From a virus (lineage: Duplodnaviria; Heunggongvirae; Uroviricota; Caudoviricetes), in the IMG/VR virus record IMGVR_UViG_3300026097_000001: a DNA stretch of 64,000 bases. One strand, written 5' to 3'. The notes below the pieces were generated by a model that searched no databases, was not told the DNA's origin, and was given only the letters and a program-made list of their open reading frames with translations. The translations under genes were made by a program, and so were the position numbers. The stretch's first letter is position 1. Each line of letters begins with the position of its first letter. Of this stretch, positions 5,286 to 46,045 are shown in pieces.

Positions 5286-5314
5286 AATATAACTGATTCT
5301 AAACGAAATGTCAA
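5286..5314 (-). promoter_or_regulatory. early promoter cassette (sigma70-like TTGACA-17-TATATT)
   Basis: Minus strand gTTGACAtttcgtttagaatcagtTATATTg; member of the reiterated ~45-bp family; upstream of the DUF932 gene. Confidence 0.6.
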
Positions 5315-6980: not shown

Positions 6981-7009
6981 AATATAACTGATTCTAAATG
7001 AAATGTCAA
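6981..7009 (-). promoter_or_regulatory. early promoter cassette (TTGACA-17-TATATT)
   Basis: Full consensus copy; the TGA stop of the 7006..7677 gene lies inside the -35 hexamer; followed by the leader GATTATATCAAATGAAAGGA and the ATG of 6648..6953. Confidence 0.65.
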
Positions 7010-18248: not shown

Positions 18249-18587
18249 TTAAGATACTTTCTTTAAGAGTGATGGAGATACGGACCATGTAGTGTGAAGT
18301 CCATTTGTTTGCTTTACCTTGATGGTCTTTTGATTTACTTTCGTAATCAAACCCTCGACGATCCCACGGCGTTTTGCGTTAAAGGTAACCTTATCGCCGA
18401 TCGTAAAGTTCGTAGCAATTTCTTTTTGCATAGAACGTTGACGAGCTTTGATCTCTGCGATGATAGTATTGAGAGTTTCTTGGTCAGCGGTACGGATTGT
18501 CTTCAGAGTTGTTTGGTTCAGCTTTTTCATCACGTAGTCCTTTTCATTTGATATATACAATCTATCTGATTCTAAAGAGAATGTCAA
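18249..18587 (-). CDS. hypothetical protein
   Basis: 112 aa; behind the early promoter at 18560-18588. Confidence 0.35.
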   Translation of the reverse strand: MTFSLESDRLYISNEKDYVMKKLNQTTLKTIRTADQETLNTIIAEIKARQRSMQKEIATNFTIGDKVTFNAKRRGIVEGLITKVNQKTIKVKQTNGLHTTWSVSPSLLKKVS

Positions 18588-24509: not shown

Positions 24510-24538
24510 AATATAACTGATTCTAAACCAAATGTCAA
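24510..24538 (-). promoter_or_regulatory. early promoter cassette (TTGACA-17-TATATT)
   Basis: Full consensus with the leader cctttcatttgatagtatc; the TGA of 24535..24864 lies inside the -35. Confidence 0.6.
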
Positions 24539-25767: not shown

Positions 25768-25883
25768 AAGGTTCTTACTAAGGCAACTATGTCAGCCTGC
25801 GCGTCGGTTTCTCCAACCTTTTCGCCGAGGCTCTTTGCCCAGATTCTCCAACATTTTCTAAACATATCAGCCATCTCTAATAT

Positions 25884-26072
25884 TTATTTCAAAAAAAGTT
25901 TTAAAGTTTTATCATCGTCTTGTAACACTAGGTCACAACTACTTACATCATAGTTTGTATATGTACGACCATCTTTGTCGATTACTTCAACTCGAGTAAC
26001 CTTAGGAAACGACATATCATATAGTTTACCAAGATCTTTAGTAGGTACTTTATTATCCATAATTAATCCCAC
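25884..26072 (-). CDS. hypothetical protein
   Basis: 62-aa ORF. Confidence 0.3.
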   Translation of the reverse strand: MGLIMDNKVPTKDLGKLYDMSFPKVTRVEVIDKDGRTYTNYDVSSCDLVLQDDDKTLKLFLK

Positions 26073-26686
26073 AAGTTTTCATAGTATTTTCCAAACAAAC
26101 GAAAACCGTTGCTCATGCGTTCTTGGTGCGCTTTACGACCTTCATCGTCTGTCCATTCAAAATGTCCGCCAAAGAGCGATTCGCCTTCGCTTTTAATGTA
26201 AGGACCATAGTAGTCTTCTTCCCAATGGTCTCGACATTTTTGTTCGAATGCCCAGATCATTTCTCCCATGATCCAGTCCCAACGATCGTGATGATACTTG
26301 TCTGTGTCATACTCGTTTTCTTTAGGTGGAGCACTGGTGCTGCGCAGTTCCTCAGGCACATCTTCATCATCAGTACAAGGTGAGCCATGTTTTGTTTCTT
26401 TAAGTTGTTTTAGCATAGGAAGAATGATAGGAGCAAGAGTATGATCCATGCTCCAAGTGTCGTACTTGTCAATACGAACTTTAATCTTTTGACCACTACG
26501 CTTGTCAAGATACAAGTTGATAGTGTAGTTATAAAGCCACTGCAAACCATCTTCTACTTTTTCAAGAAAGGATTCAAAACGAGTTGAATTTTCTTCCCAT
26601 CCCCAACGACCATACTTCTTATCCATATAGCGGTCGTGGACGTAGCTTACCCAGCGATAGCGAAAAGGTCCCATATAAATTTTCAT
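26063..26686 (-). CDS. hypothetical protein
   Basis: 207 aa, Trp/Tyr-rich. Confidence 0.4.
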   Translation of the reverse strand: MKIYMGPFRYRWVSYVHDRYMDKKYGRWGWEENSTRFESFLEKVEDGLQWLYNYTINLYLDKRSGQKIKVRIDKYDTWSMDHTLAPIILPMLKQLKETKHGSPCTDDEDVPEELRSTSAPPKENEYDTDKYHHDRWDWIMGEMIWAFEQKCRDHWEEDYYGPYIKSEGESLFGGHFEWTDDEGRKAHQERMSNGFRLFGKYYENLWD

Positions 26687-26687
26687 T

Positions 26688-27818
26688 TCACATTCCCAAC
26701 CATTCTGCTGTTTTATCCCACTTTGTGTTGTTGCTTACGCTGTCACGAACAATCTTAATCATAAATTCACGCAAGTCAATACCATCAAGCATCTTAAAGA
26801 TAATAGGTGCATCCATTTTGTTTTCCAGCGTAGGAATAAACTCCAATGCAATGCGCTTACGGTCTTCACCATAGTTCGTCTTAGCTTCAAGGAACCGAAG
26901 CATTAGGTTCTCTTCTGTGCGTTTAAACGCTTCCCAGAAACGAATTTCAAAGTCACGAACTTTAGCAATCTCCTTCTCTGGCAACAGTGGAACAATATCA
27001 TCAACTTCTTCATTGATAATCAAGTCAACAATGTTGCGGTCAAAGCGAATGCGATCCATGCATTTATGAATACGAACATACCAATCGTTTTTGATTTTAA
27101 CCATGTGGCCATCAGTAAAGCGAATGATATCACCTTCACGTGACTCTTGCTTACGAGCAATATCCATGTAGTCATTTAAACCAAGTTCAAGAGAACCATA
27201 CTGAGGCACTGTTGGAAATGGACATGATTTGTCCATTACATATGCGCCCGTAACATTGTCACGAGTACCAAGATACACCAATTCAGGTTCGTTGTAGTCC
27301 AACACGATTTGGTTGTCTGGGCTAATCCACTCAAATAATGGAGTAACGCCATCTTTAACGCACTTCATGAGCCATTCTTTTTTCTCGTAAGACTGAGTTA
27401 CCAAAAACTCCTCAGCCTGCATCGCAACAGTAGTTACCCCCATCTTAGTACCAAGGCGCAAGTATCCATCAACAAGCAATGGGCGGATCATTGAACCATC
27501 CATTTTTTCCATGATAGTGTGTCCAACACTCAAGTCAATAGCATGACTCTGGGTCTCTTCGCGTTCACCGACATTAAAGAACTTGTGGAATGGGCGAGAC
27601 ATTAGATTACCATCAAGGTCAAAGATAAGACCGCGACACTCACGACGAATTGCTCCACCAAGATCATCTGGACCTTCCATGTCAAAAGTGTCTTGCATAG
27701 CAACCACATAGTTAATCACTGTGCCGTAGTCGCGTTCTGCAACTACAAACTCTTTGCGACCTTCAATATGAGGCAGGACATCGTCAATGTGACGGATAGT
27801 TGGAAATACATAGTTCAT
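26688..27818 (-). CDS. rnlA: RNA ligase 1 (T4 RnlA-like)
   Basis: 376 aa; nucleotidyltransferase motif I EKMDGSMIRP (KxDG) and HMVKIKNDWYVRIH matching T4 Rnl1. Confidence 0.7.
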   Translation of the reverse strand: MNYVFPTIRHIDDVLPHIEGRKEFVVAERDYGTVINYVVAMQDTFDMEGPDDLGGAIRRECRGLIFDLDGNLMSRPFHKFFNVGEREETQSHAIDLSVGHTIMEKMDGSMIRPLLVDGYLRLGTKMGVTTVAMQAEEFLVTQSYEKKEWLMKCVKDGVTPLFEWISPDNQIVLDYNEPELVYLGTRDNVTGAYVMDKSCPFPTVPQYGSLELGLNDYMDIARKQESREGDIIRFTDGHMVKIKNDWYVRIHKCMDRIRFDRNIVDLIINEEVDDIVPLLPEKEIAKVRDFEIRFWEAFKRTEENLMLRFLEAKTNYGEDRKRIALEFIPTLENKMDAPIIFKMLDGIDLREFMIKIVRDSVSNNTKWDKTAEWLGM

Positions 27819-28036
27819 TATTCTTCCTCTACTTCAAAACCTTGGGCGAACATCAACAATTCAGTTGCTACTGCCAATGCTTCTTCACGAGTAAACTGCA
27901 TCATATCAAACATATTTGAGGGATCACTTGACCGACCTTTGCGTGTCAATTGAACGCATGGACCACGGTCTTTACCGCCAAAGAAACGAGTTTGTGTTAC
28001 GTTTGTGTTTGGAACATTTCTCAATTGCGTTGACAT
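27818..28036 (-). CDS. hypothetical protein
   Basis: 72-aa ORF behind an early promoter. Confidence 0.35.
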   Translation of the reverse strand: MSTQLRNVPNTNVTQTRFFGGKDRGPCVQLTRKGRSSDPSNMFDMMQFTREEALAVATELLMFAQGFEVEEE

Positions 28037-28060
28037 AGTGTATCTCCTTTTGATATAATT

Positions 28061-28089
28061 AATATACTATAAGGAGATACGAATGTCAA
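28061..28089 (-). promoter_or_regulatory. early promoter cassette (TTGACA-17-TATATT)
   Basis: Upstream of 27818..28036, with the conserved leader ttttgatataat. Confidence 0.55.
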
Positions 28090-28108
28090 CAGTTAATTTC
28101 AATTAATT

Positions 28109-28366
28109 TCATTTTTTATGGTCCTTGTAATCAACAGCATCAGCCATCTTTGCTACACGCACTAGGTTGTTTGCCCAACTGCCGCTAACAGTAATATAAT
28201 ACAATTCGTGTATGTGCTCAATGCGTTTTTCATACTCAAAGTTAAAATCTACTTCATCTGCCATCAATAGATCAATAAATTTTTTAATTTGATCTTTGTG
28301 ATGATAGTAGAATTCAAGTTCCCAAGTGCAGATGCTTGCTCTACCGTTTACTACTGGCTTGTTCAT
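28109..28366 (-). CDS. hypothetical protein
   Basis: 85-aa ORF. Confidence 0.35.
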   Translation of the reverse strand: MNKPVVNGRASICTWELEFYYHHKDQIKKFIDLLMADEVDFNFEYEKRIEHIHELYYITVSGSWANNLVRVAKMADAVDYKDHKK

Positions 28367-28386
28367 TTGAACTTTCCTATCTTATT

Positions 28387-28626
28387 TTATTTTCTTACCT
28401 TTGTCCACGGGGTTGACCAAGTCATGCACACCCACCACAAACACAGTGCTACATGAGGTCCATCATAATACATATATTCGTATCCAAGAAATCTATTTTC
28501 TCGCTTTTCAATGCGGTCGAACCAATAGAAGTAATAGAAGTATGTGTTACTGCCGAGCGTTTTTTCAGATTGCCACCATTCGATGCCATTCCATCGCAGT
28601 TTAAACTTAAAGGGATACTGTTTCAT
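28387..28626 (-). CDS. hypothetical Trp-rich protein (start trimmed to the internal Met)
   Basis: The track ORF 28387..28677 overlaps 28607..28873; the internal start MKQYPF at ~28626 removes most of the overlap. Confidence 0.3.
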   Translation of the reverse strand: MKQYPFKFKLRWNGIEWWQSEKTLGSNTYFYYFYWFDRIEKRENRFLGYEYMYYDGPHVALCLWWVCMTWSTPWTKVRK

Positions 28627-28873
28627 CTGGTGCCTTTCCACACTTACATTCGTAGATAGTTTCAATAACAGGTTCACAGAACCTTATATTATTTTCGAGC
28701 CTCCAGTATTTTCCGAATGGAATACCAAACAACCGCCGCTGTACTTGACGGTAATGAAGCGGCGGGTTGTATTCATCTGGTCCGCCTGTCACTTTTTTAC
28801 AAAGACCGGTTAGTTCAACAGGTGCCCAATAAGTGCCATAATCTCCGTATTTTTGTTCGTAAGCTTGTTTCAT
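28607..28873 (-). CDS. hypothetical Cys-containing protein
   Basis: 88-aa ORF. Confidence 0.3.
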   Translation of the reverse strand: MKQAYEQKYGDYGTYWAPVELTGLCKKVTGGPDEYNPPLHYRQVQRRLFGIPFGKYWRLENNIRFCEPVIETIYECKCGKAPDETVSL

Positions 28874-29403
28874 TCTGACTCTCCGTTGTCAACCCCAATC
28901 AAAGCACCATGCATATTGTAGAAGCTAATCATATCAAAGCCTTCGTCAATTGTGGGAATAGCATAGCTTTCAATCATATTTGCCATAATGTGGTTAGGAA
29001 TATTCTTACCAGGACGATTCTCAAGACGATACTTCCAATCTTTTTGATCTGAAATATGTGCAGGTTCAGGTGGAACAATGCACTCACACCGAACTTGATA
29101 GCCGGCTTGCTTCATCCGATTGATAATCTTTTTACGCTTCTTAACACCTAGATTGGTTTGATCCCAGATAATATCTTTCTTAAGCCGCATCATCGTGATA
29201 ACTTTTTCTTCATTAAACTCAGTAGCAGCTTTGATGTTACTTTCAAACGCTTCGTTGTAGGTGATGCCATTATCTTCAGCCATGGACTCAATATACATGT
29301 CTGTGCTGTAGATCCAAGTGTCTGGTTTATACATGCCTTTGATAAGGGTAGATTTACCAGTAGCAGGCAATCCTACCATTACATAACAAATTGGTTCAGA
29401 CAT
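28870..29403 (-). CDS. pnk: polynucleotide 5'-kinase domain protein (T4 Pnk N-terminal half)
   Basis: 177 aa; Walker A MVGLPATGKSTLIK and overall similarity to the T4 Pnk kinase domain. Confidence 0.65.
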   Translation of the reverse strand: MSEPICYVMVGLPATGKSTLIKGMYKPDTWIYSTDMYIESMAEDNGITYNEAFESNIKAATEFNEEKVITMMRLKKDIIWDQTNLGVKKRKKIINRMKQAGYQVRCECIVPPEPAHISDQKDWKYRLENRPGKNIPNHIMANMIESYAIPTIDEGFDMISFYNMHGALIGVDNGESE

Positions 29404-29806
29404 GATATTTCACTTTCACGATTTCTGTTGCTTTTCTTTGAGCCTCTGCTTCTGCGTCTTTAAGTTTTTGCTGCAATACAAAACTTTTAGCTTCTTTGAG
29501 TGTTGACCTTTTAACATGTTTGGGGTAACGATAACCGCTTAGCAATTCTGTAACAGGCTCCCACCGATCTAAAAGGAAACGTTTGTATTCAACATAGAAC
29601 GTTCGGTTTCCATTGCGCAATGTTTCTTCACGAATTCTGTATTTTATAGCCATAATATTAACCTCTTGAAGCACTAGCGGCGATGCCAAGAGCAACCCAA
29701 CCAACAATATCGGTAACATCTTTACCCATAAAATAAGCAATTGTATATACCACGCATACCGCAAAGGCAACGTAAATAAAGTCTCTAATAAGATTTTCCA
29801 TATCAA
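29396..29806 (-). CDS. membrane protein
   Basis: 136 aa; two N-terminal TM helices then a basic domain; sits between the two Pnk halves. Confidence 0.4.
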   Translation of the reverse strand: MIWKILLETLFTLPLRYAWYIQLLILWVKMLPILLVGLLLASPLVLQEVNIMAIKYRIREETLRNGNRTFYVEYKRFLLDRWEPVTELLSGYRYPKHVKRSTLKEAKSFVLQQKLKDAEAEAQRKATEIVKVKYHV

Positions 29807-30000
29807 TCACACCGAATAAAGTTAAGGGTTTCAGAGTCAATACGAGGAGCCATGTATCCGACAGACCCCCACCTACGTATCAAATACTCAACACCATCAA
29901 TACAGTCTACCTTATAATCTCTGCCACCGTTGCTTTCGGTATCGCCTTTGCAACCAGTTAGCAACACAATCAAAGGTACTGCAATAATAAATTTCCACAT
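29803..30000 (-). CDS. small lipoprotein
   Basis: 65 aa; signal peptide with lipobox LLTGC. Confidence 0.4.
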   Translation of the reverse strand: MWKFIIAVPLIVLLTGCKGDTESNGGRDYKVDCIDGVEYLIRRWGSVGYMAPRIDSETLNFIRCD

Positions 30001-30155
30001 TAGATTAACTTTCTCAGTTCATTTGGATCACGGTTGATGATTGCTGCTAAACTATCAACAGCATCTGCAATATAAATTCCGCCCCACATCATGTTAGGGT
30101 CGTGTTTCTCCGCCCAAAGGAGGAAAAACACAAGATTTGCGAGATGTTCGGTCAT
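30000..30155 (-). CDS. possible 51-aa protein (not in the ORF track)
   Basis: ATG overlaps the TGA of the phosphatase gene (ATGA) and its TAA overlaps the lipoprotein ATG (TAATG). Confidence 0.25.
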   Translation of the reverse strand: MTEHLANLVFFLLWAEKHDPNMMWGGIYIADAVDSLAAIINRDPNELRKLI

Positions 30156-30619
30156 CAGAAGTCCTCCTTGCCTTGGTATACATCAAACACAAAGATGCCA
30201 GCGTCACGCCACATATTCACAACACGTGGTCGGTCATCAAATACCATGTCAGGCTTTTTACCGTAGTCAGCGATGATCTCATCTAGGATTTCCTGCTTCA
30301 CGATGTCATCGCCACGGAAGTCATCTGCCTTACGCATGTAGAGTTTCTGATAGCCTCGAATATGATTATCCCACAACCAATCCTCAGTTGCTTTGCGACT
30401 ACGCTCATTGCGACCGCTTGCAAGAACAATATCATTCCGAAACATCATACTCGTGAACACTTCTTTAACTTGTTCGTTCACTTTATCGTTTGGAATACCA
30501 GCGTCAAACGCTTTCCAATTCTTTGGCTTACTGCGAACATAATCAAGACGATGTTCGATATTGGCAAGTGTGCCATCAATATCAAAAACTACTAGCATTT
30601 TCTTCTTCCCATACTTCAT
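30155..30619 (-). CDS. pnk: polynucleotide 3'-phosphatase domain protein (T4 Pnk C-terminal HAD half)
   Basis: 154 aa; LVVFDIDGTLA (DxDGT motif I) and overall similarity to the T4 Pnk phosphatase domain. Confidence 0.65.
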   Translation of the reverse strand: MKYGKKKMLVVFDIDGTLANIEHRLDYVRSKPKNWKAFDAGIPNDKVNEQVKEVFTSMMFRNDIVLASGRNERSRKATEDWLWDNHIRGYQKLYMRKADDFRGDDIVKQEILDEIIADYGKKPDMVFDDRPRVVNMWRDAGIFVFDVYQGKEDF

Positions 30620-30742
30620 TCAAATATTGCACTTCACAGTCAAACTGAGCTGGAGATAAAAGTCCAGCTTCTAGTTCTTCCTCAAGTTCTTCCATTGCTT
30701 TATCATATTGTGCTTCGGTCATAATGTATCCTTTCTGAATCT

Positions 30743-30771
30743 ATACTATACTAATTCTAAACGAATGTCAA
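30743..30771 (-). promoter_or_regulatory. early promoter cassette (TTGACA-17-TAGTAT)
   Basis: The TGA of the Toprim gene lies inside the -35; upstream of the Pnk operon. Confidence 0.5.
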
Positions 30772-31292
30772 CCATTTTCTTCAATTAGTTTTAAAACATA
30801 TTCATCGGAAGCATCACCAAGATCATTGTAACCTTCTACTGTGACGAAAGAATTACCCAAACGACGCAACCTACGCCCAGCACTATCATCATCGCAAATA
30901 GAAACGACAGGGCGAGACTTTCTAACACTCCACAACCACCTTGCCGTGCTAGGTTGAACATCATTACCAAAGACAGCAATTGCGCTATAACCAAAGGCAG
31001 TAATTCTACAGGCATCAAATATTCCTTCTGTTACAAATAATGTGTTTGATAAGTTCCAACTTTCTAATCCCCAAATCCCAACTCTACCATCCTTAACTCG
31101 AGTGAAATAGCGGCCTTCTAGAGGGTTGTTGTTCTTTTCTTTGGTAGCCGAAGGCCGATATTGTTGATACCCTACCAGCTGTCCAGAAAGGTTCCAAATA
31201 GGGAATACAGCAACACCTTCACTTTCATTAAGCCATACACGATGAAGATCGGTATCAAGCTTTCGAGTGTGAAGGTGTTGTAACAGTGTCAT
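30768..31292 (-). CDS. Toprim-domain protein
   Basis: 174 aa; TEGIFDA (catalytic Glu) and ICDDDSAG (DxD) of the Toprim fold; separate from the primase at 45032. Confidence 0.5.
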   Translation of the reverse strand: MTLLQHLHTRKLDTDLHRVWLNESEGVAVFPIWNLSGQLVGYQQYRPSATKEKNNNPLEGRYFTRVKDGRVGIWGLESWNLSNTLFVTEGIFDACRITAFGYSAIAVFGNDVQPSTARWLWSVRKSRPVVSICDDDSAGRRLRRLGNSFVTVEGYNDLGDASDEYVLKLIEENG

Positions 31293-31483
31293 TTTACATG
31301 CCTCATTATAACTTCATCATTACGCCCGAAAAGAGTAACAACGTTTGATGCTACACGTGGAGCTAAGACTTTCACACGATACCAATTCAATGCTTCGCAA
31401 AAAGTATCAACATTAGTTGAACCCCATTCGCCAGTCTCTGGAAATATGTGATGAACTTTATACATTGTTCCGTTTTCTTTCAT
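31289..31483 (-). CDS. hypothetical protein
   Basis: 64-aa ORF behind an early promoter. Confidence 0.35.
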   Translation of the reverse strand: MKENGTMYKVHHIFPETGEWGSTNVDTFCEALNWYRVKVLAPRVASNVVTLFGRNDEVIMRHVK

Positions 31484-31496
31484 TCTTTATAGAATC

Positions 31497-31525
31497 AGTA
31501 TAAACTATTTTTAAACGAATGTCAA
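31497..31525 (-). promoter_or_regulatory. early promoter cassette (TTGACA-17-TATACT)
   Basis: Immediately downstream of the terminator at 31524-31556; upstream of 31289..31483. Confidence 0.5.
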
Positions 31526-31573: not shown

Positions 31574-32422
31574 TTACTTTACGCTAACGAAAGGTACCGC
31601 TGCACTAGGAACCATTGTTGTTGGAAGTTTACCATCCCAACGTTCTGCACTTACAAGATCAATCAAGCTTGGGTTATCCTTAAGAGCTTTACCTCGAGCA
31701 TTGATTGCTTCCGCCTCGGCATTACCTTTGAGAGTAATAGCTTCTGCTTCAGCCTTTGCTTGTGCGACCCTTGCTTTGGCTGTAGCTTCTGCCTGAATCA
31801 CTTTAATCTCAGCTTGAACCTTTTCACGTTCCGCGTTCTGACGAACCTTTTGAACTTCTACCTCAGCAAGCATGCGTTGTTCAATAGAGTTTTCATATGC
31901 ATCTGAAAAGTCAATGTTTTCAATTTGTACACTCTCGATAATAATAGGTCCGACTACTGCTTCCTGAATTCGCATTTGAACTTCTGCTACCAATCGTGAA
32001 CGATCTTGAATAGCTGTAACAGCATTGAATTGACCAAAGATATTCTTAGTCTCATCCATTACCTTACGATCCAAAAGTCGAGAGGCAAGTCCACCAACAC
32101 TACCATATTCCTCGTAAACTGTAGCAACTGCATCTGCTGGAACTCGGAAGTTTACCGATACTGTAAGACCAGCTGTTTGTTGGTCTCGCGAATATGCAAG
32201 AATATTCTCATACACCTTTGCCTGCGTTCGGACGTCAATGTCTACAACCTTTTCAATGATCGGCATCTTAAATCCAAGTCCGGGTTCAGCCGTGCCCGTA
32301 ATAGCACCGTTACGTAGCATTACGCCGCGTTCACCTTGGTCTACTGTGTACCAAGAACCGAGTAGTGCAGTGATACCAAAGATGGCAATAATAACTGCAA
32401 AAATAGCTACAACAGGTTTCAT
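31574..32422 (-). CDS. SPFH/band-7 (stomatin/HflC-like) membrane protein
   Basis: 282 aa; N-terminal TM then YTVDQGERGVMLRNG and SPFH-domain conservation; Ala/Glu-rich coiled-coil tail. Confidence 0.75.
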   Translation of the reverse strand: MKPVVAIFAVIIAIFGITALLGSWYTVDQGERGVMLRNGAITGTAEPGLGFKMPIIEKVVDIDVRTQAKVYENILAYSRDQQTAGLTVSVNFRVPADAVATVYEEYGSVGGLASRLLDRKVMDETKNIFGQFNAVTAIQDRSRLVAEVQMRIQEAVVGPIIIESVQIENIDFSDAYENSIEQRMLAEVEVQKVRQNAEREKVQAEIKVIQAEATAKARVAQAKAEAEAITLKGNAEAEAINARGKALKDNPSLIDLVSAERWDGKLPTTMVPSAAVPFVSVK

Positions 32423-32589
32423 TATTTAATTTCCTTTTCATTTTCAGTTGTGTTGTTGTTTACTTTGTCACCTTTATAGGTGTATTTTTCTTGCTGTTGT
32501 TTAAATGTAATATTGGTCAATAGCCAATAGATACCAAAGCCAAGAATGCTTCCCATTACAAGAAGGCCAATTAGTGCTAGTCCCATCAT
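32423..32589 (-). CDS. 55-aa single-pass membrane protein (not in the ORF track), candidate SPFH partner
   Basis: MMGLALIGLLVMGSILGFGIYWLL then a charged tail; its TAA overlaps the SPFH ATG (TAATG) and its ATG overlaps the upstream TGA. Confidence 0.35.
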
Positions 32590-32903
32590 TTCATTTTGCT
32601 TTCTGTCTTTTCGCCTTTTTCAAAGCACTGCATACCCATATAAGGTGCTGATGTGCTGCTACCGATAGCTACTGAGCATACAACATTTGGATTTGTCTCT
32701 GATACCCATTCGTATACACGGAAGTCATAACCATATGCTTCTACTTTAAAAGCATTACTTTCTTTCACTGGCCAATCAGATGTTGCCACCATATCGAACA
32801 AACCAGCTGATGCTGTGGTTGTTATAAGTGCGAGTGCTAGAGTGGCCATTGTTAGTTTCTTAATCATTAATAATATCCTTTGCAATCTTGGCCAGCTCTT
32901 CAA
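32586..32903 (-). CDS. secreted protein
   Basis: 105 aa; cleavable signal peptide TLALALITTTASA. Confidence 0.4.
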   Translation of the reverse strand: MKSWPRLQRILLMIKKLTMATLALALITTTASAGLFDMVATSDWPVKESNAFKVEAYGYDFRVYEWVSETNPNVVCSVAIGSSTSAPYMGMQCFEKGEKTESKMK

Positions 32904-33411
32904 TATGAACTGGACGGTAATTAGTTTGTTCTACACATACACAGTGGTATGGTCCTTTTGGTGACTTATTTTGGTGAATATGACCATGCACGTTTAGCAT
33001 TTTCTTATCACCTTTTGCACCACGCATTAACGAACTTTCATGTAGAGGAACATGACTCATAATAATACCAAGCTCAGAAAAGATCCTCCACATTTGTACT
33101 TTTTGAAAAAAGCCACCTGACGATAGAAATTTAATATCATCGTGGTTACCAACAATTAAACGTTTGCTGCCCATTAATCGCGGCCATAAACTCTTAAACT
33201 TTTCTTTATCACCAAAGAATACATCTCCTAAGTGATAGACCTTATCACCAGGCCGAACAACTTCGTTCCATCTTTGGATCATAGTTTCATCCATCTCTTG
33301 AGAGTCACTAAATTCTGGGCGGACAGGTTTGCCTGTTTTACTATCTAGAAAGTTGAGTATATTACTATGGCTGAAGTGAGTATCACTGATTACCCATATG
33401 TTTTTACTCAT
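32860..33411 (-). CDS. calcineurin-like metallophosphoesterase
   Basis: 183 aa with ISDTHFSH, GDKVYHLGD, GNHD and GHIH metal-binding motifs. Confidence 0.7.
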   Translation of the reverse strand: MSKNIWVISDTHFSHSNILNFLDSKTGKPVRPEFSDSQEMDETMIQRWNEVVRPGDKVYHLGDVFFGDKEKFKSLWPRLMGSKRLIVGNHDDIKFLSSGGFFQKVQMWRIFSELGIIMSHVPLHESSLMRGAKGDKKMLNVHGHIHQNKSPKGPYHCVCVEQTNYRPVHIEELAKIAKDIIND

Positions 33412-36171: not shown

Positions 36172-36200
36172 AATATAACTGATTCTAAACGAAATGTCAA
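36172..36200 (-). promoter_or_regulatory. early promoter cassette (TTGACA-17-TATATT)
   Basis: Full consensus with the leader ttttcatttaatatatac; upstream of 35942..36142. Confidence 0.6.
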
Positions 36201-38837: not shown

Positions 38838-38866
38838 AATATAACTGATTCTAAAGGCAATGTCAA
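38838..38866 (-). promoter_or_regulatory. early promoter cassette (TTGACA-17-TATATT)
   Basis: Consensus copy upstream of 38434..38805. Confidence 0.6.
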
Positions 38867-44577: not shown

Positions 44578-45047
44578 TTATCTACATATACTTCACCTTC
44601 ACGTTCGCTACTATAAAGCTCATACGTTAGCTCAATCAATGTTCTCGGTAAAAACACCTCACAATCATAAGTCCCTTGAATACGGCTCAGCCAGAACTCG
44701 TCTATAAGAGTTAGACTATTTTCAATTAGGTTACTCCCACCGATGATCCAAACGTCATCTTCATAGCTGAGTACATTCATTCTTGATCTATAGATATCCG
44801 AACGAATTACCTCTACATCGTTCTGCTGTTTCATTGTATCAGACACAACAATGTTTCGTCGACCGGGCAACGGTTTGAACGGAAGGCTGTCCCAGGTTCT
44901 TCGACCCATAACGATCGTTCCGTTGAGTGTAGTTTCTTTGAACCATTTTAGATCCGCTGGGTTGTTTGGCCAAGGTAGACCTCCACCCTTACCTATACCC
45001 CAATCGTCGTCACATGCTAAAATCGCTCGTATCATGCTTTTCTCCAT
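44562..45047 (-). CDS. folA: dihydrofolate reductase
   Basis: 161 aa; MIRAILACDDDWGIGKGGGLPW and IVMGRRTW DHFR motifs; overlaps thyA by 16 nt. Confidence 0.85.
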   Translation of the reverse strand: MEKSMIRAILACDDDWGIGKGGGLPWPNNPADLKWFKETTLNGTIVMGRRTWDSLPFKPLPGRRNIVVSDTMKQQNDVEVIRSDIYRSRMNVLSYEDDVWIIGGSNLIENSLTLIDEFWLSRIQGTYDCEVFLPRTLIELTYELYSSEREGEVYVDKWKKI

Positions 45048-46045
45048 GTCATTAATTTTAAGTTAGCTTCTAGGCTAGTGTATGTATTATTACGAATGAT
45101 TTCTTCAACGTTGTTTGCTCCGGCTAATACCATTTCGTTAATATCTTTTGCTGGAACATCAGAAGGCCAGATACAGATCTTATAACCGTTGCGAATTATC
45201 TTTTCCATTCGTTTATGAATTTCTCTGTTTCGTGGTTCAGCATCAAATACAAAGGTTGCATTATTTACGTTTTGAAGGGCGGCTGTACTACCTTCAGCAC
45301 CAGCCATTGCTACGGCGTTAGAAAGAAACATGCTGTCGAGCGCCCCTTCAACAACAAAGTATGGCTTGTTAAAATCAACTTTATCGAGACCAAAGATCTT
45401 TGGACGATCGTCGAACATAATCGTGATGTATCGTATTCCTTTTGGGTCAAACCCTCGAGCCGATACACCAAATACCTTACCTCTTTTATCTATAAAAGGA
45501 ATCACTAGACGTGGCTCATCCTTACCAACGTTTTCAAATTTATTTGGTATGATACTATTGATCCACGTTTTAAACTTCTGAGCATAGAACATGCGATAAT
45601 GGTGTTCTGGTGGAATACCTCTCTTTACGATATACTTTTTAAGAGGATGATCCACACTCAGCTGACTTATCTTTTTGAGTTTTTTAAGTGGGTTGGTGTT
45701 GAAGACCGGCGCTTCAAACTTAGTCTTTTCAAGAGTGGTTTCTTCAGGCTTCTTTTCGCTTACTTTCTTTACGAACTTTTCTGAGATATAGTCGTTATAG
45801 ACAAGGTTATCAACACTCTTGAGAAAGAACGAAAAGGATTGACTTGCTCCACAGTTATGACAGTAGAAGTGAAAGCTGTTATCTTTTTCTAACAACCAGC
45901 CACGTGCCTTCGTACGTGATGTTTGAGAATCACCGCACGCCGGGCACCTGAAGTTTATCTTGTATGGATTCGTTGACCGAACACGAAAGCGCTCAAGCCT
46001 GTTTGATAGCATAGTTGCATAATGAAGATCTACGAAATCTACCAT
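45032..46045 (-). CDS. DNA primase (T4 gp61-like, zinc finger plus Toprim)
   Basis: 337 aa; zinc ribbon CPACGDS...CHNCG; Toprim EGALD and primase-core conservation. Confidence 0.7.
   Translation of the reverse strand: MVDFVDLHYATMLSNRLERFRVRSTNPYKINFRCPACGDSQTSRTKARGWLLEKDNSFHFYCHNCGASQSFSFFLKSVDNLVYNDYISEKFVKKVSEKKPEETTLEKTKFEAPVFNTNPLKKLKKISQLSVDHPLKKYIVKRGIPPEHHYRMFYAQKFKTWINSIIPNKFENVGKDEPRLVIPFIDKRGKVFGVSARGFDPKGIRYITIMFDDRPKIFGLDKVDFNKPYFVVEGALDSMFLSNAVAMAGAEGSTAALQNVNNATFVFDAEPRNREIHKRMEKIIRNGYKICIWPSDVPAKDINEMVLAGANNVEEIIRNNTYTSLEANLKLMTWRKA

Follow-up and report, generated by a model that had tools for sequence, protein, structure and literature searches.

Stand-alone phosphatase, kinase and Rnl1-type ligase genes of a probable RNA repair module in an environmental phage genome

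The DNA examined here, hereafter the window, is a stretch of 64,000 nucleotides (nt) from the IMG/VR virus record IMGVR_UViG_3300026097_000001 (Caudoviricetes). Between 26 and 32.6 kb every gene is carried on the minus strand, and this block includes genes for an ATP-dependent RNA ligase, a putative polynucleotide kinase and a polynucleotide 3'-phosphatase. The original prediction for the locus, made without database searches, was of a tRNA-repair toolkit in which a T4-type polynucleotide kinase (Pnk) had been split into two genes flanking three small membrane or lipoprotein genes. The open reading frames (ORFs) on which it rested, at 26688-27818 (376 amino acids, aa), 28870-29403 (177 aa) and 30155-30619 (154 aa) of the minus strand, were confirmed. 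The features of the locus, in the direction of transcription, are:

30743..30771, minus strand: sigma-70-like site TTGACA-17-TAGTAT (10/12 matches), a presumed promoter upstream of the unit that runs from g46 through the phosphatase and the kinase to g85
30582..30722, minus strand: g46, 46 aa, very acidic (14 D/E, 1 K/R), first gene after the promoter site, with an AAAGGA Shine-Dalgarno sequence upstream
30155..30598, minus strand: stand-alone HAD (DxDxT) polynucleotide 3'-phosphatase of the T4 Pnk type, 147 aa (the longest ORF starts at 30619 and has 154 aa)
30000..30155, minus strand: g51, 51 aa, its start sharing 1 nt with the phosphatase stop (TGATG)
29803..30000, minus strand: Lpp65, predicted lipoprotein, 65 aa, with signal peptide and lipobox LTG/C as read from the sequence
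29658..29801, minus strand: g47, small membrane protein, 47 aa, its ATG 1 nt past the lipoprotein stop
29396..29653, minus strand: g85b, basic (20 K/R) soluble protein, 85 aa, with an AGAGG Shine-Dalgarno sequence and ATG
28870..29403, minus strand: stand-alone P-loop 5'-OH polynucleotide kinase of the Pnk clade, 177 aa, assigned by homology
28607..28873, minus strand: g88, 88 aa, in ATGA overlap with the kinase stop, no family match in Pfam or PHROG
28387..28626, minus strand: g79, 79 aa (longest ORF 96 aa, from a GTG at 28677), matching PHROG 26401 (5e-7)
28109..28366, minus strand: g85, 85 aa, closing the kinase unit, no family match in Pfam or PHROG
28029..28090, minus strand: intergenic promoter-like site TTGACA-17-TATATT (28089-28061, 11/12 matches) inside a strong hairpin
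27818..28036, minus strand: g72, 72 aa, directly 5' of Rnl1 with an ATGA-type overlap, no family match
26688..27818, minus strand: Rnl1-type ATP-dependent RNA ligase, 376 aa, assigned by Pfam, PHROG and alignment to T4 Rnl1
26063..26686, minus strand: g207, conserved hypothetical protein directly 3' of Rnl1, matching PHROG 11543

The junctions between the genes from g46 to g85 are tightly packed (TGATG, TAATG, TGAtATG, TAAtattATG, an 8-nt overlap and ATGA), in agreement with the overlap-chained operon first proposed, but the chain does not reach the ligase: a gap of 72 nt (28037-28108) separates Rnl1 from the overlap-chained unit, and there is a separate promoter-like site upstream of g72-Rnl1. 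The early promoter placed at 30743-30771 is present as a sequence match, and a promoter function for it is presumed. About 750 nt, with four ORFs, separate the phosphatase gene from the kinase gene.

The ligase matches Pfam RNA_lig_T4_1 (2e-24) and PHROG 562 (2e-72, covering 33-366), and its residues 59-358 align with residues 52-361 of T4 Rnl1 (2C5U, 1.6e-28). Motif I, the motif that was checked residue by residue, keeps its lysine, with KMDGS of the window protein aligned to KEDGS of T4. The phosphatase gives a match to Pfam HAD_PNKP (PF25109; 2e-28, 99.7 bits against a cutoff of 27.6), covers positions 159-294 of the 295 positions of PHROG 505 ('polynucleotide kinase') and also matches PHROG 415. 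Among known structures it matches residues 158-299 of T4 Pnk (1LTQ, 3e-9), the isolated T4 phosphatase domain (5UJ0) and Capnocytophaga Pnkp1. All ten residues of the T4 Pnk phosphatase that were checked are conserved: D13, D15, T17, R24 and S68 of the window protein correspond to T4 D165, D167, T169, R176 and S211, and R70, D104, K108, D128 and D129 to T4 R213, D254, K258, D277 and D278. The start codon of this gene is most likely the ATG at 30598, and not that at 30619, because the resulting opening, MLVVFDIDG, is common to nearly all relatives examined; in one of them, locus L009, the phosphatase ORF opens five residues further upstream, MRDKMLVVFDIDG.

The best Pfam match of the kinase is AAA_33 (5e-15), with weaker matches to Zeta_toxin (2.6e-5) and KTI12 (2e-3), and the protein covers positions 5-141 of the same PHROG 505 (295 positions). 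A single-sequence phmmer search of the PDB gave insignificant matches only. A 12-sequence kinase profile had as its best PDB match RazKIN (9D8A, 2e-6), followed by PSTK (6e-6), mammalian PNKP (7e-6), Pnkp1 (2e-5) and T4 Pnk (2e-5 and 8e-5), with no significant zeta-toxin or adenylate-kinase match. By hhalign, the kinase profile aligned with T4 Pnk at 96.6% probability (E 5e-10; the T4 sequence used was checked to be 100% identical to 1LTQ), and K17, S18, D35, R126 and R130 of the kinase fell on T4 K15, S16, D35, R122 and R126. This alignment, which agrees with the predicted secondary structure, was used throughout; Smith-Waterman alignment of the two proteins misplaces the Asp35 region. The motifs that are invariant in the family comprise the P-loop G11-x4-G16-K17-S18, D35, D81-Q-T-N84, R126-x3-R130 and R-x-x-x-R-x-G-K. 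Structure prediction, run on database homologues, gave a fold closest to the kinase domains of known Pnk enzymes.

The kinase subfamily counts 503 homologues, the largest of their contigs reaching about 370 kb, and all of the 120 listed among them are 142–197 aa long and carry AAA_33 only. There is also a natural kinase-phosphatase fusion, P0204, the kinase part of which belongs to the subfamily found in the window (32% identity, 8e-18) and retains the STD, WDQTN, RLxxRxGKxIP and EEGF motifs. This fusion provides an independent functional tie of the subfamily to a Pnk phosphatase. From its sequence, the protein is best called a Pnk-clade kinase, and not specifically one half of the T4 enzyme. 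The three identities, of ligase, phosphatase and kinase, lend support to the idea of a tRNA-repair toolkit, and the profile search and motifs turn away a possibility left open in the original prediction, that the P-loop protein was of the zeta-toxin or adenylate-kinase type.

Related loci were retrieved by an IMG/VR scan with the kinase, which gave 18 loci; L025 and L027 were found later. The order phosphatase, kinase, Rnl1, with all three genes separate, is found in L001-L006, L008-L010, L025 and L027. More than 12 related viral contigs have separate genes for the three enzymes, and the separate state is common to relatives down to about 35–40% identity. Of the 150 best phosphatase representatives (50% clusters), 127 are shorter than 250 aa, i.e. 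single-domain, and the rest consist of 13 fusions with the phosphatase N-terminal and the kinase C-terminal, nine fusions in the opposite order and one protein with another N-terminal region; the 15 nearest representatives are all stand-alone. The two domains thus occur fused in either order, and unfused most often among the nearest relatives. A set of 13 proteins of 303–321 aa (P0143, P0163, P0178 and 10 others) has an N-terminal Pnk-type HAD phosphatase and a C-terminal CthPnk-like kinase.

Near-identical DNA was absent from phage records (megablast with the 4-kb region). Four contigs of several origins carry exactly these proteins, proteins of the window are found on a 201-kb contig, and L030, an independent short-read assembly (Logan SRR5210209), is 100% identical to positions 25870-30362 of the window (4493 nt). 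The genes are not intact in every relative: the kinase is truncated to its P-loop region in L018 (6001-6129) and L019 (4242-4360), and in L010 (6558-7572) Rnl1 is split over two frames and lacks residues 75-111. Truncated kinases and a disrupted ligase are what would be expected of a dispensable counter-defence module.

Among known systems, Pnk (PseT) and Rnl1 (gp63) of T4 carry out the same three chemistries and belong to the same protein families as the window set, and the ligases are of similar length (374 aa in T4, 376 aa in the window). In T4, however, the kinase (N-terminal) and phosphatase (C-terminal) are parts of a single polypeptide, whereas in the window they are separate genes with the phosphatase first. 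The window kinase resembles CthPnk and mammalian PNKP in its D-Q-T-N motif (D-x-T-N in those enzymes, D-T-N in T4), and it differs from T4 in having Ile in place of Arg38 and, in the predicted models, an additional beta-hairpin, about 30 aa long, at the C-terminus. The cultured Roseobacter phage DSS3P8 has a stand-alone Pnk-HAD phosphatase (gp099), Rnl1 (gp105) and an AAA_33 kinase (gp106), so that its order is phosphatase ... ligase, kinase as against phosphatase ... kinase ... ligase in the window. Five unrelated genes, including one for a cell-wall hydrolase, lie between gp099 and gp105, and the intervening genes of the window are different ones. Ligase-kinase pairs are also present in Cr30, Synechococcus phages B3/B23, MD18, RpAliso, RcXuper and others; the proteins of DSS3P8 and of similar sets (MD18, RpAliso, RcXuper, Cr30, B3/B23) are 35–42% identical to those of the window.

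Fused Pnk-HAD enzymes are known both as kinase-phosphatase (T4, Capnocytophaga Pnkp1 4XRP, P0204) and as phosphatase-kinase (P0143, P0163 and others, the order of mammalian PNKP), and the CthPnk-like kinase of the phosphatase-kinase fusions (MVGPSGAGKS...SSD...DATN) shows only a distant relationship to that of the window. A precedent for separate heal-and-seal enzymes is the stand-alone RNA kinase of Mucorales (RazKIN/MciKIN, 9D8A), which is accompanied by a stand-alone ligase (PMC11571804). Unlike the window set, that system is eukaryotic, its kinase is GTP-specific with a G-loop, its Trl1-type ligase needs a 2'-PO4, and it has no HAD phosphatase. In a survey of jumbo phages, kinases and HAD phosphatases were found to accompany ATP-dependent RNA ligases, the PNK-HAD phosphatase being 'usually' fused (PMC7824862).

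Three genes were first described between the phosphatase and kinase. Two of these, the 51 aa ORF and the 65 aa lipobox ORF, were upheld, and the third, a 136 aa protein with two transmembrane (TM) segments, proved to be two genes merged. In the 136 aa ORF (TTG at 29806), the N-terminal 51 codons overlap g47, which is in another frame, and the C-terminal 85 codons are g85b. The 47 aa protein is conserved in L001 (79% identity), where its gene is the sole one between phosphatase and kinase, and tblastn in the retrieved loci detected it also in L025 and L027 (44–49% identity). The g85b homologue of L019 (64% identity), whose gene comes right after an unrelated one, also opens with MAIKYRIREET; the gene caller on L030 also gives 85 aa, and a weak match to PHROG 18049 begins at residue 1. 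One clear TM segment is seen in g47 (KD17 2.21) and no hydrophobic segment in g85b. With the two-gene model there are four genes between the enzymes, only two of which (the lipoprotein and g47) are of envelope type.

The lipobox of Lpp65, MWKFIIAVPLIVLLTG followed by C, or MWKFIIAVPLIVLL-T-G-C17, fits [LVI][ASTVI][GAS]C, and the N-terminal KD17 is 2.05; this call was read from the sequence without a dedicated predictor. The protein has no relative in IMG/VR, its PHROG and Pfam matches are signal-peptide-level noise only (e.g., Cor, E 0.25), and its match to a different lipoprotein in L026 is limited to the signal peptide. No TM segment is predicted in g51 (maximum KD17 1.32). Homologues of g51 lie 3' of the phosphatase in L022-L027, and in L011 and L013 they occur with no phosphatase nearby. 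In none of the intervening ORFs was an intein or HNH family match detected in Pfam and PHROG, even at E up to 1.

The content of the phosphatase-kinase interval differs from relative to relative. In L001 it is g47 alone, in L002, L003 and L009 there are soluble ORFs of 76 and 69 aa, in L004-L006 ORFs of 109, 56 and 208 aa, in L008 a single ORF of 59 aa, and in L026 about ten ORFs, two of which specify other lipoprotein-like proteins. This pattern is what shared descent with frequent gene gain and loss produces, and does not look as if repair were obligately coupled to the envelope. The 208 aa ORF (5375-6001 in L004, L005 and L006) abuts the kinase start and has an H...HD...D-like pattern, with a Pfam HD match of E 0.08 only. 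If it were a true HD phosphoesterase, then HD-Pnk end-healing enzymes would be a parallel for the pairing of this ORF with the kinase.

The acidic g46 has no family match in Pfam or PHROG and no counterpart in the relatives examined. An independent gene call gives g79 the same 79 aa length, and its homologues in L008 and L024 are at other places. The 72 aa protein encoded directly before the ligase has a counterpart in the same position in L001, with 98.6% identity. On the other side of the ligase, g207 has more than 8000 homologues, which in other phages are not linked to RNA-repair genes; no fold match was found for it, and it is probably outside the repair module.

A promoter-like motif, TTGACATTtcgTTTAGAATcAGTTATATT, together with a conserved leader (gwtTATAtcAAATGAAAGGA), is found 5' of many gene starts on the minus strand. 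The 29-nt consensus has six copies in the window with two or fewer mismatches, compared to none expected from shuffles, and there are looser copies as well:

5286-5314, 6981-7009, 18559-18587, 24510-24538, 36172-36200 and 38838-38866, minus strand: close copies of the motif (<=2 mismatches)
7733, 19043, 28089, 30771, 31525 and others, minus strand: looser copies of the motif, those at 31525, 30771 and 28089 bounding units

The site at 30771-30743 resembles the TTGACATT..TTTAGAAT.. motif with a 1-nt shift in the spacer, and does not match the 29-nt pattern. The repeated motif is probably an early promoter family of the phage, and the phosphatase-kinase unit and the g72-Rnl1 unit are probably transcribed from the sigma-70-like sites at 30771 and 28089, respectively. 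The second of these sites lies within a hairpin of inverted repeats at 28029-28090 (-26.6 kcal/mol, z -8.0), in which the region of the -35 hexamer, GUUGACAU, pairs with the AUG start of g72, AUGUCAAC, and the spacer, GUAUCUCCUU, pairs with the g72 Shine-Dalgarno sequence, AAGGAGAUAC. On read-through RNA the ribosome binding site of g72 would be hidden, and transcripts starting at the local promoter would be without the 5' arm. A similar hairpin design is known from some T4 genes. The g72 hairpin is weakly preserved in L001, and a strong stem-loop was found at one of the five promoter sites folded.

T4-like phages have hyperplastic regions and mobile early-promoter cassettes, PeSL (PMC4122927, PMC2839356). 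The window resembles these in its small variable ORFs amid conserved genes, its repeated early-promoter-like motif and a relocated cassette of two genes; the PeSL composite of stem-loop plus promoter is seen at the single site 28029-28090. The cassette (30768-31483, minus strand) consists of g64 and the gene for a 174 aa protein and is flanked by promoter-like sites. In the window its position is 5' of the phosphatase; in L001 it separates the kinase from g72-Rnl1. The match of the 174 aa protein to primase profiles is confined to their middle, Toprim-like part (PHROG 849, positions 148-308 of 435; Toprim_2, E 0.03), and a full-length primase is encoded at 45032-46045.

Further upstream, at 31574-32589 (minus strand), is a gene for a 282 aa SPFH/Band-7 protein (Pfam 4e-31), preceded by an overlapping 55 aa single-TM ORF. 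This pair is also found 5' of the phosphatase in L003, and the SPFH gene has that position in L002 as well. A calcineurin-like metallophosphoesterase of 183 aa (32860-33411, minus strand; Metallophos 1.5e-6, PHROG 547 1e-50) is encoded 2 kb upstream of the repair genes and could be a further phosphoesterase with RNA ends or proteins as its substrate. Elsewhere the window encodes a collagen-like tail fibre, PhoH, RNR, ThyA, dNMP kinase, a Dda-like helicase, primase and sugar-nucleotide genes, and contigs carrying g207 homologues of 66–69% identity encode gp32, RNase H and a T4-type spanin. The virus is a large, probably T4-like phage. No tRNA genes were found in the 64-kb window, a result that is neutral towards RNA repair.

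We consider it likely that the region holds a heal-and-seal RNA repair module of three free-standing enzymes, situated in a plastic early-gene region of a large phage. In such a module, a host ribotoxin or anticodon nuclease would cut tRNA to leave 2',3'-cyclic or 3'-phosphate and 5'-OH ends, the 3' phosphate would be removed by the HAD (DxDxT) phosphatase, the 5'-OH would be phosphorylated by the P-loop kinase, and the break would be resealed by the Rnl1-type ligase. The phosphatase of T4 Pnkp acts on cyclic phosphate ends (PMC3592404). The products of g46, g51, g47, g85b, g88, g79, g85 and g72, and the lipoprotein, would be variable cargo of the region and stand outside the repair machine.

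Several points weigh against this interpretation. The functions of all three enzymes are assigned by homology, and the counter-defence role is a presumed one. In the kinase, the position of T4 Arg38 (CthPnk Arg41) is occupied by Ile38, which is nearly invariant across the subfamily; this arginine, three residues past the catalytic Asp, contacts the acceptor nucleotide and is essential in T4 Pnk. Finally, in several relatives g51 and g47 are again found close to the phosphatase, a possible sign of a functional tie.

The Ile38 substitution would also fit an improbable alternative, in which the 177 aa protein is a zeta-toxin-like, PSTK/Kti12-like or small-molecule kinase, the HAD protein acts on nucleotides, and there is no repair module at all. 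The Zeta_toxin and KTI12 matches in Pfam (2.6e-5 and 2e-3) and the PSTK score, close to that of PNKP in the profile search, point the same way, but zeta toxin is only 12% identical to the kinase and about 100 aa longer, neither it nor adenylate kinase was significant in the profile search, and the Pnk signature motifs are invariant. The conserved linkage to Rnl1 and a Pnk-type phosphatase, together with the fusion P0204, also argues for repair. We give marginally less credence, and still very little, to g47, Lpp65 and g51 as functional partners that might anchor repair at the membrane or detect envelope events, the kind of coupling that was suggested in the original prediction. In its favor, g47 sits in the phosphatase-kinase interval not only of the window but also of L001, L025 and L027, g51 is found 3' of the phosphatase here as in L022-L027, the start/stop overlaps are compatible with translational coupling, and small TM ORFs of other families occupy the same interval in L004, L008 and L026. 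Yet conservation does not extend to the intervening ORFs as a group: L002-L010 retain phosphatase, kinase and Rnl1 without g47 or g51, L011 and L013 have g51 with no phosphatase nearby, the relative order of g47 and g51 varies between loci, Lpp65 is without relatives in IMG/VR, and the intervening genes of DSS3P8 are wholly different. Such partial synteny as exists is explained by shared descent in one phage clade. Similarly doubtful is a variant in which phosphatase, kinase and ligase form a multi-subunit repair complex that includes g51 and/or g47, and in which, as a separate matter, the Ile38 kinase, of a biochemically uncharacterised subfamily, has an acceptor specificity differing from that of T4 Pnk; there, g51 could stand in for the missing fused domain in oligomerisation, or g47 could hold the repair enzymes at the membrane.

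Another element of the original prediction was a T4-type bifunctional Pnk recently split by the insertion of envelope genes, or by an intein/HNH element that left remnants. Kinase and phosphatase do match the two halves of PHROG 505, and fused forms are known for both subfamilies, but we regard a recent split as very unlikely. The gene order, phosphatase (5') then kinase (3'), is the reverse of that in T4, so insertion into a T4-type gene cannot yield the layout of the window. Alignment to T4 Pnk showed that no residues are missing: both proteins are complete domains with their own start codons, corresponding to T4 residues 6-143 (kinase) and 158-299 (phosphatase). Relatives share the separate layout, stand-alone forms dominate both subfamilies (all 15 nearest phosphatase representatives and 120/120 of the listed kinase homologues), and the lack of Pfam or PHROG matches to intein or HNH families leaves no trace of remnants. 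An assembly or sequencing artefact, with a frameshift or chimera mimicking a split, had also been raised and is the least credible explanation of all, its likelihood being close to nil. It is contradicted by the 100% identical independent assembly L030, the exact proteins on four contigs and the same architecture in more than 12 related contigs, and with about 750 nt, four ORFs and a reversed order between the two genes, no frameshift could join them.

The free-standing repair module is thus an ordinary layout, common in relatives, and its significance beyond annotation is little. For the locus itself, the gene model is corrected from one ORF of 136 aa to two of 47 and 85 aa, and the stand-alone enzymes could possibly be convenient monofunctional reagents. 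Because the two activities are in separate genes, annotation of the phosphatase alone as 'polynucleotide kinase' and of the kinase as 'zeta toxin/ATPase' is misleading. A widespread group of large environmental phages normally encodes RNA end-healing as separate phosphatase and kinase genes beside Rnl1.

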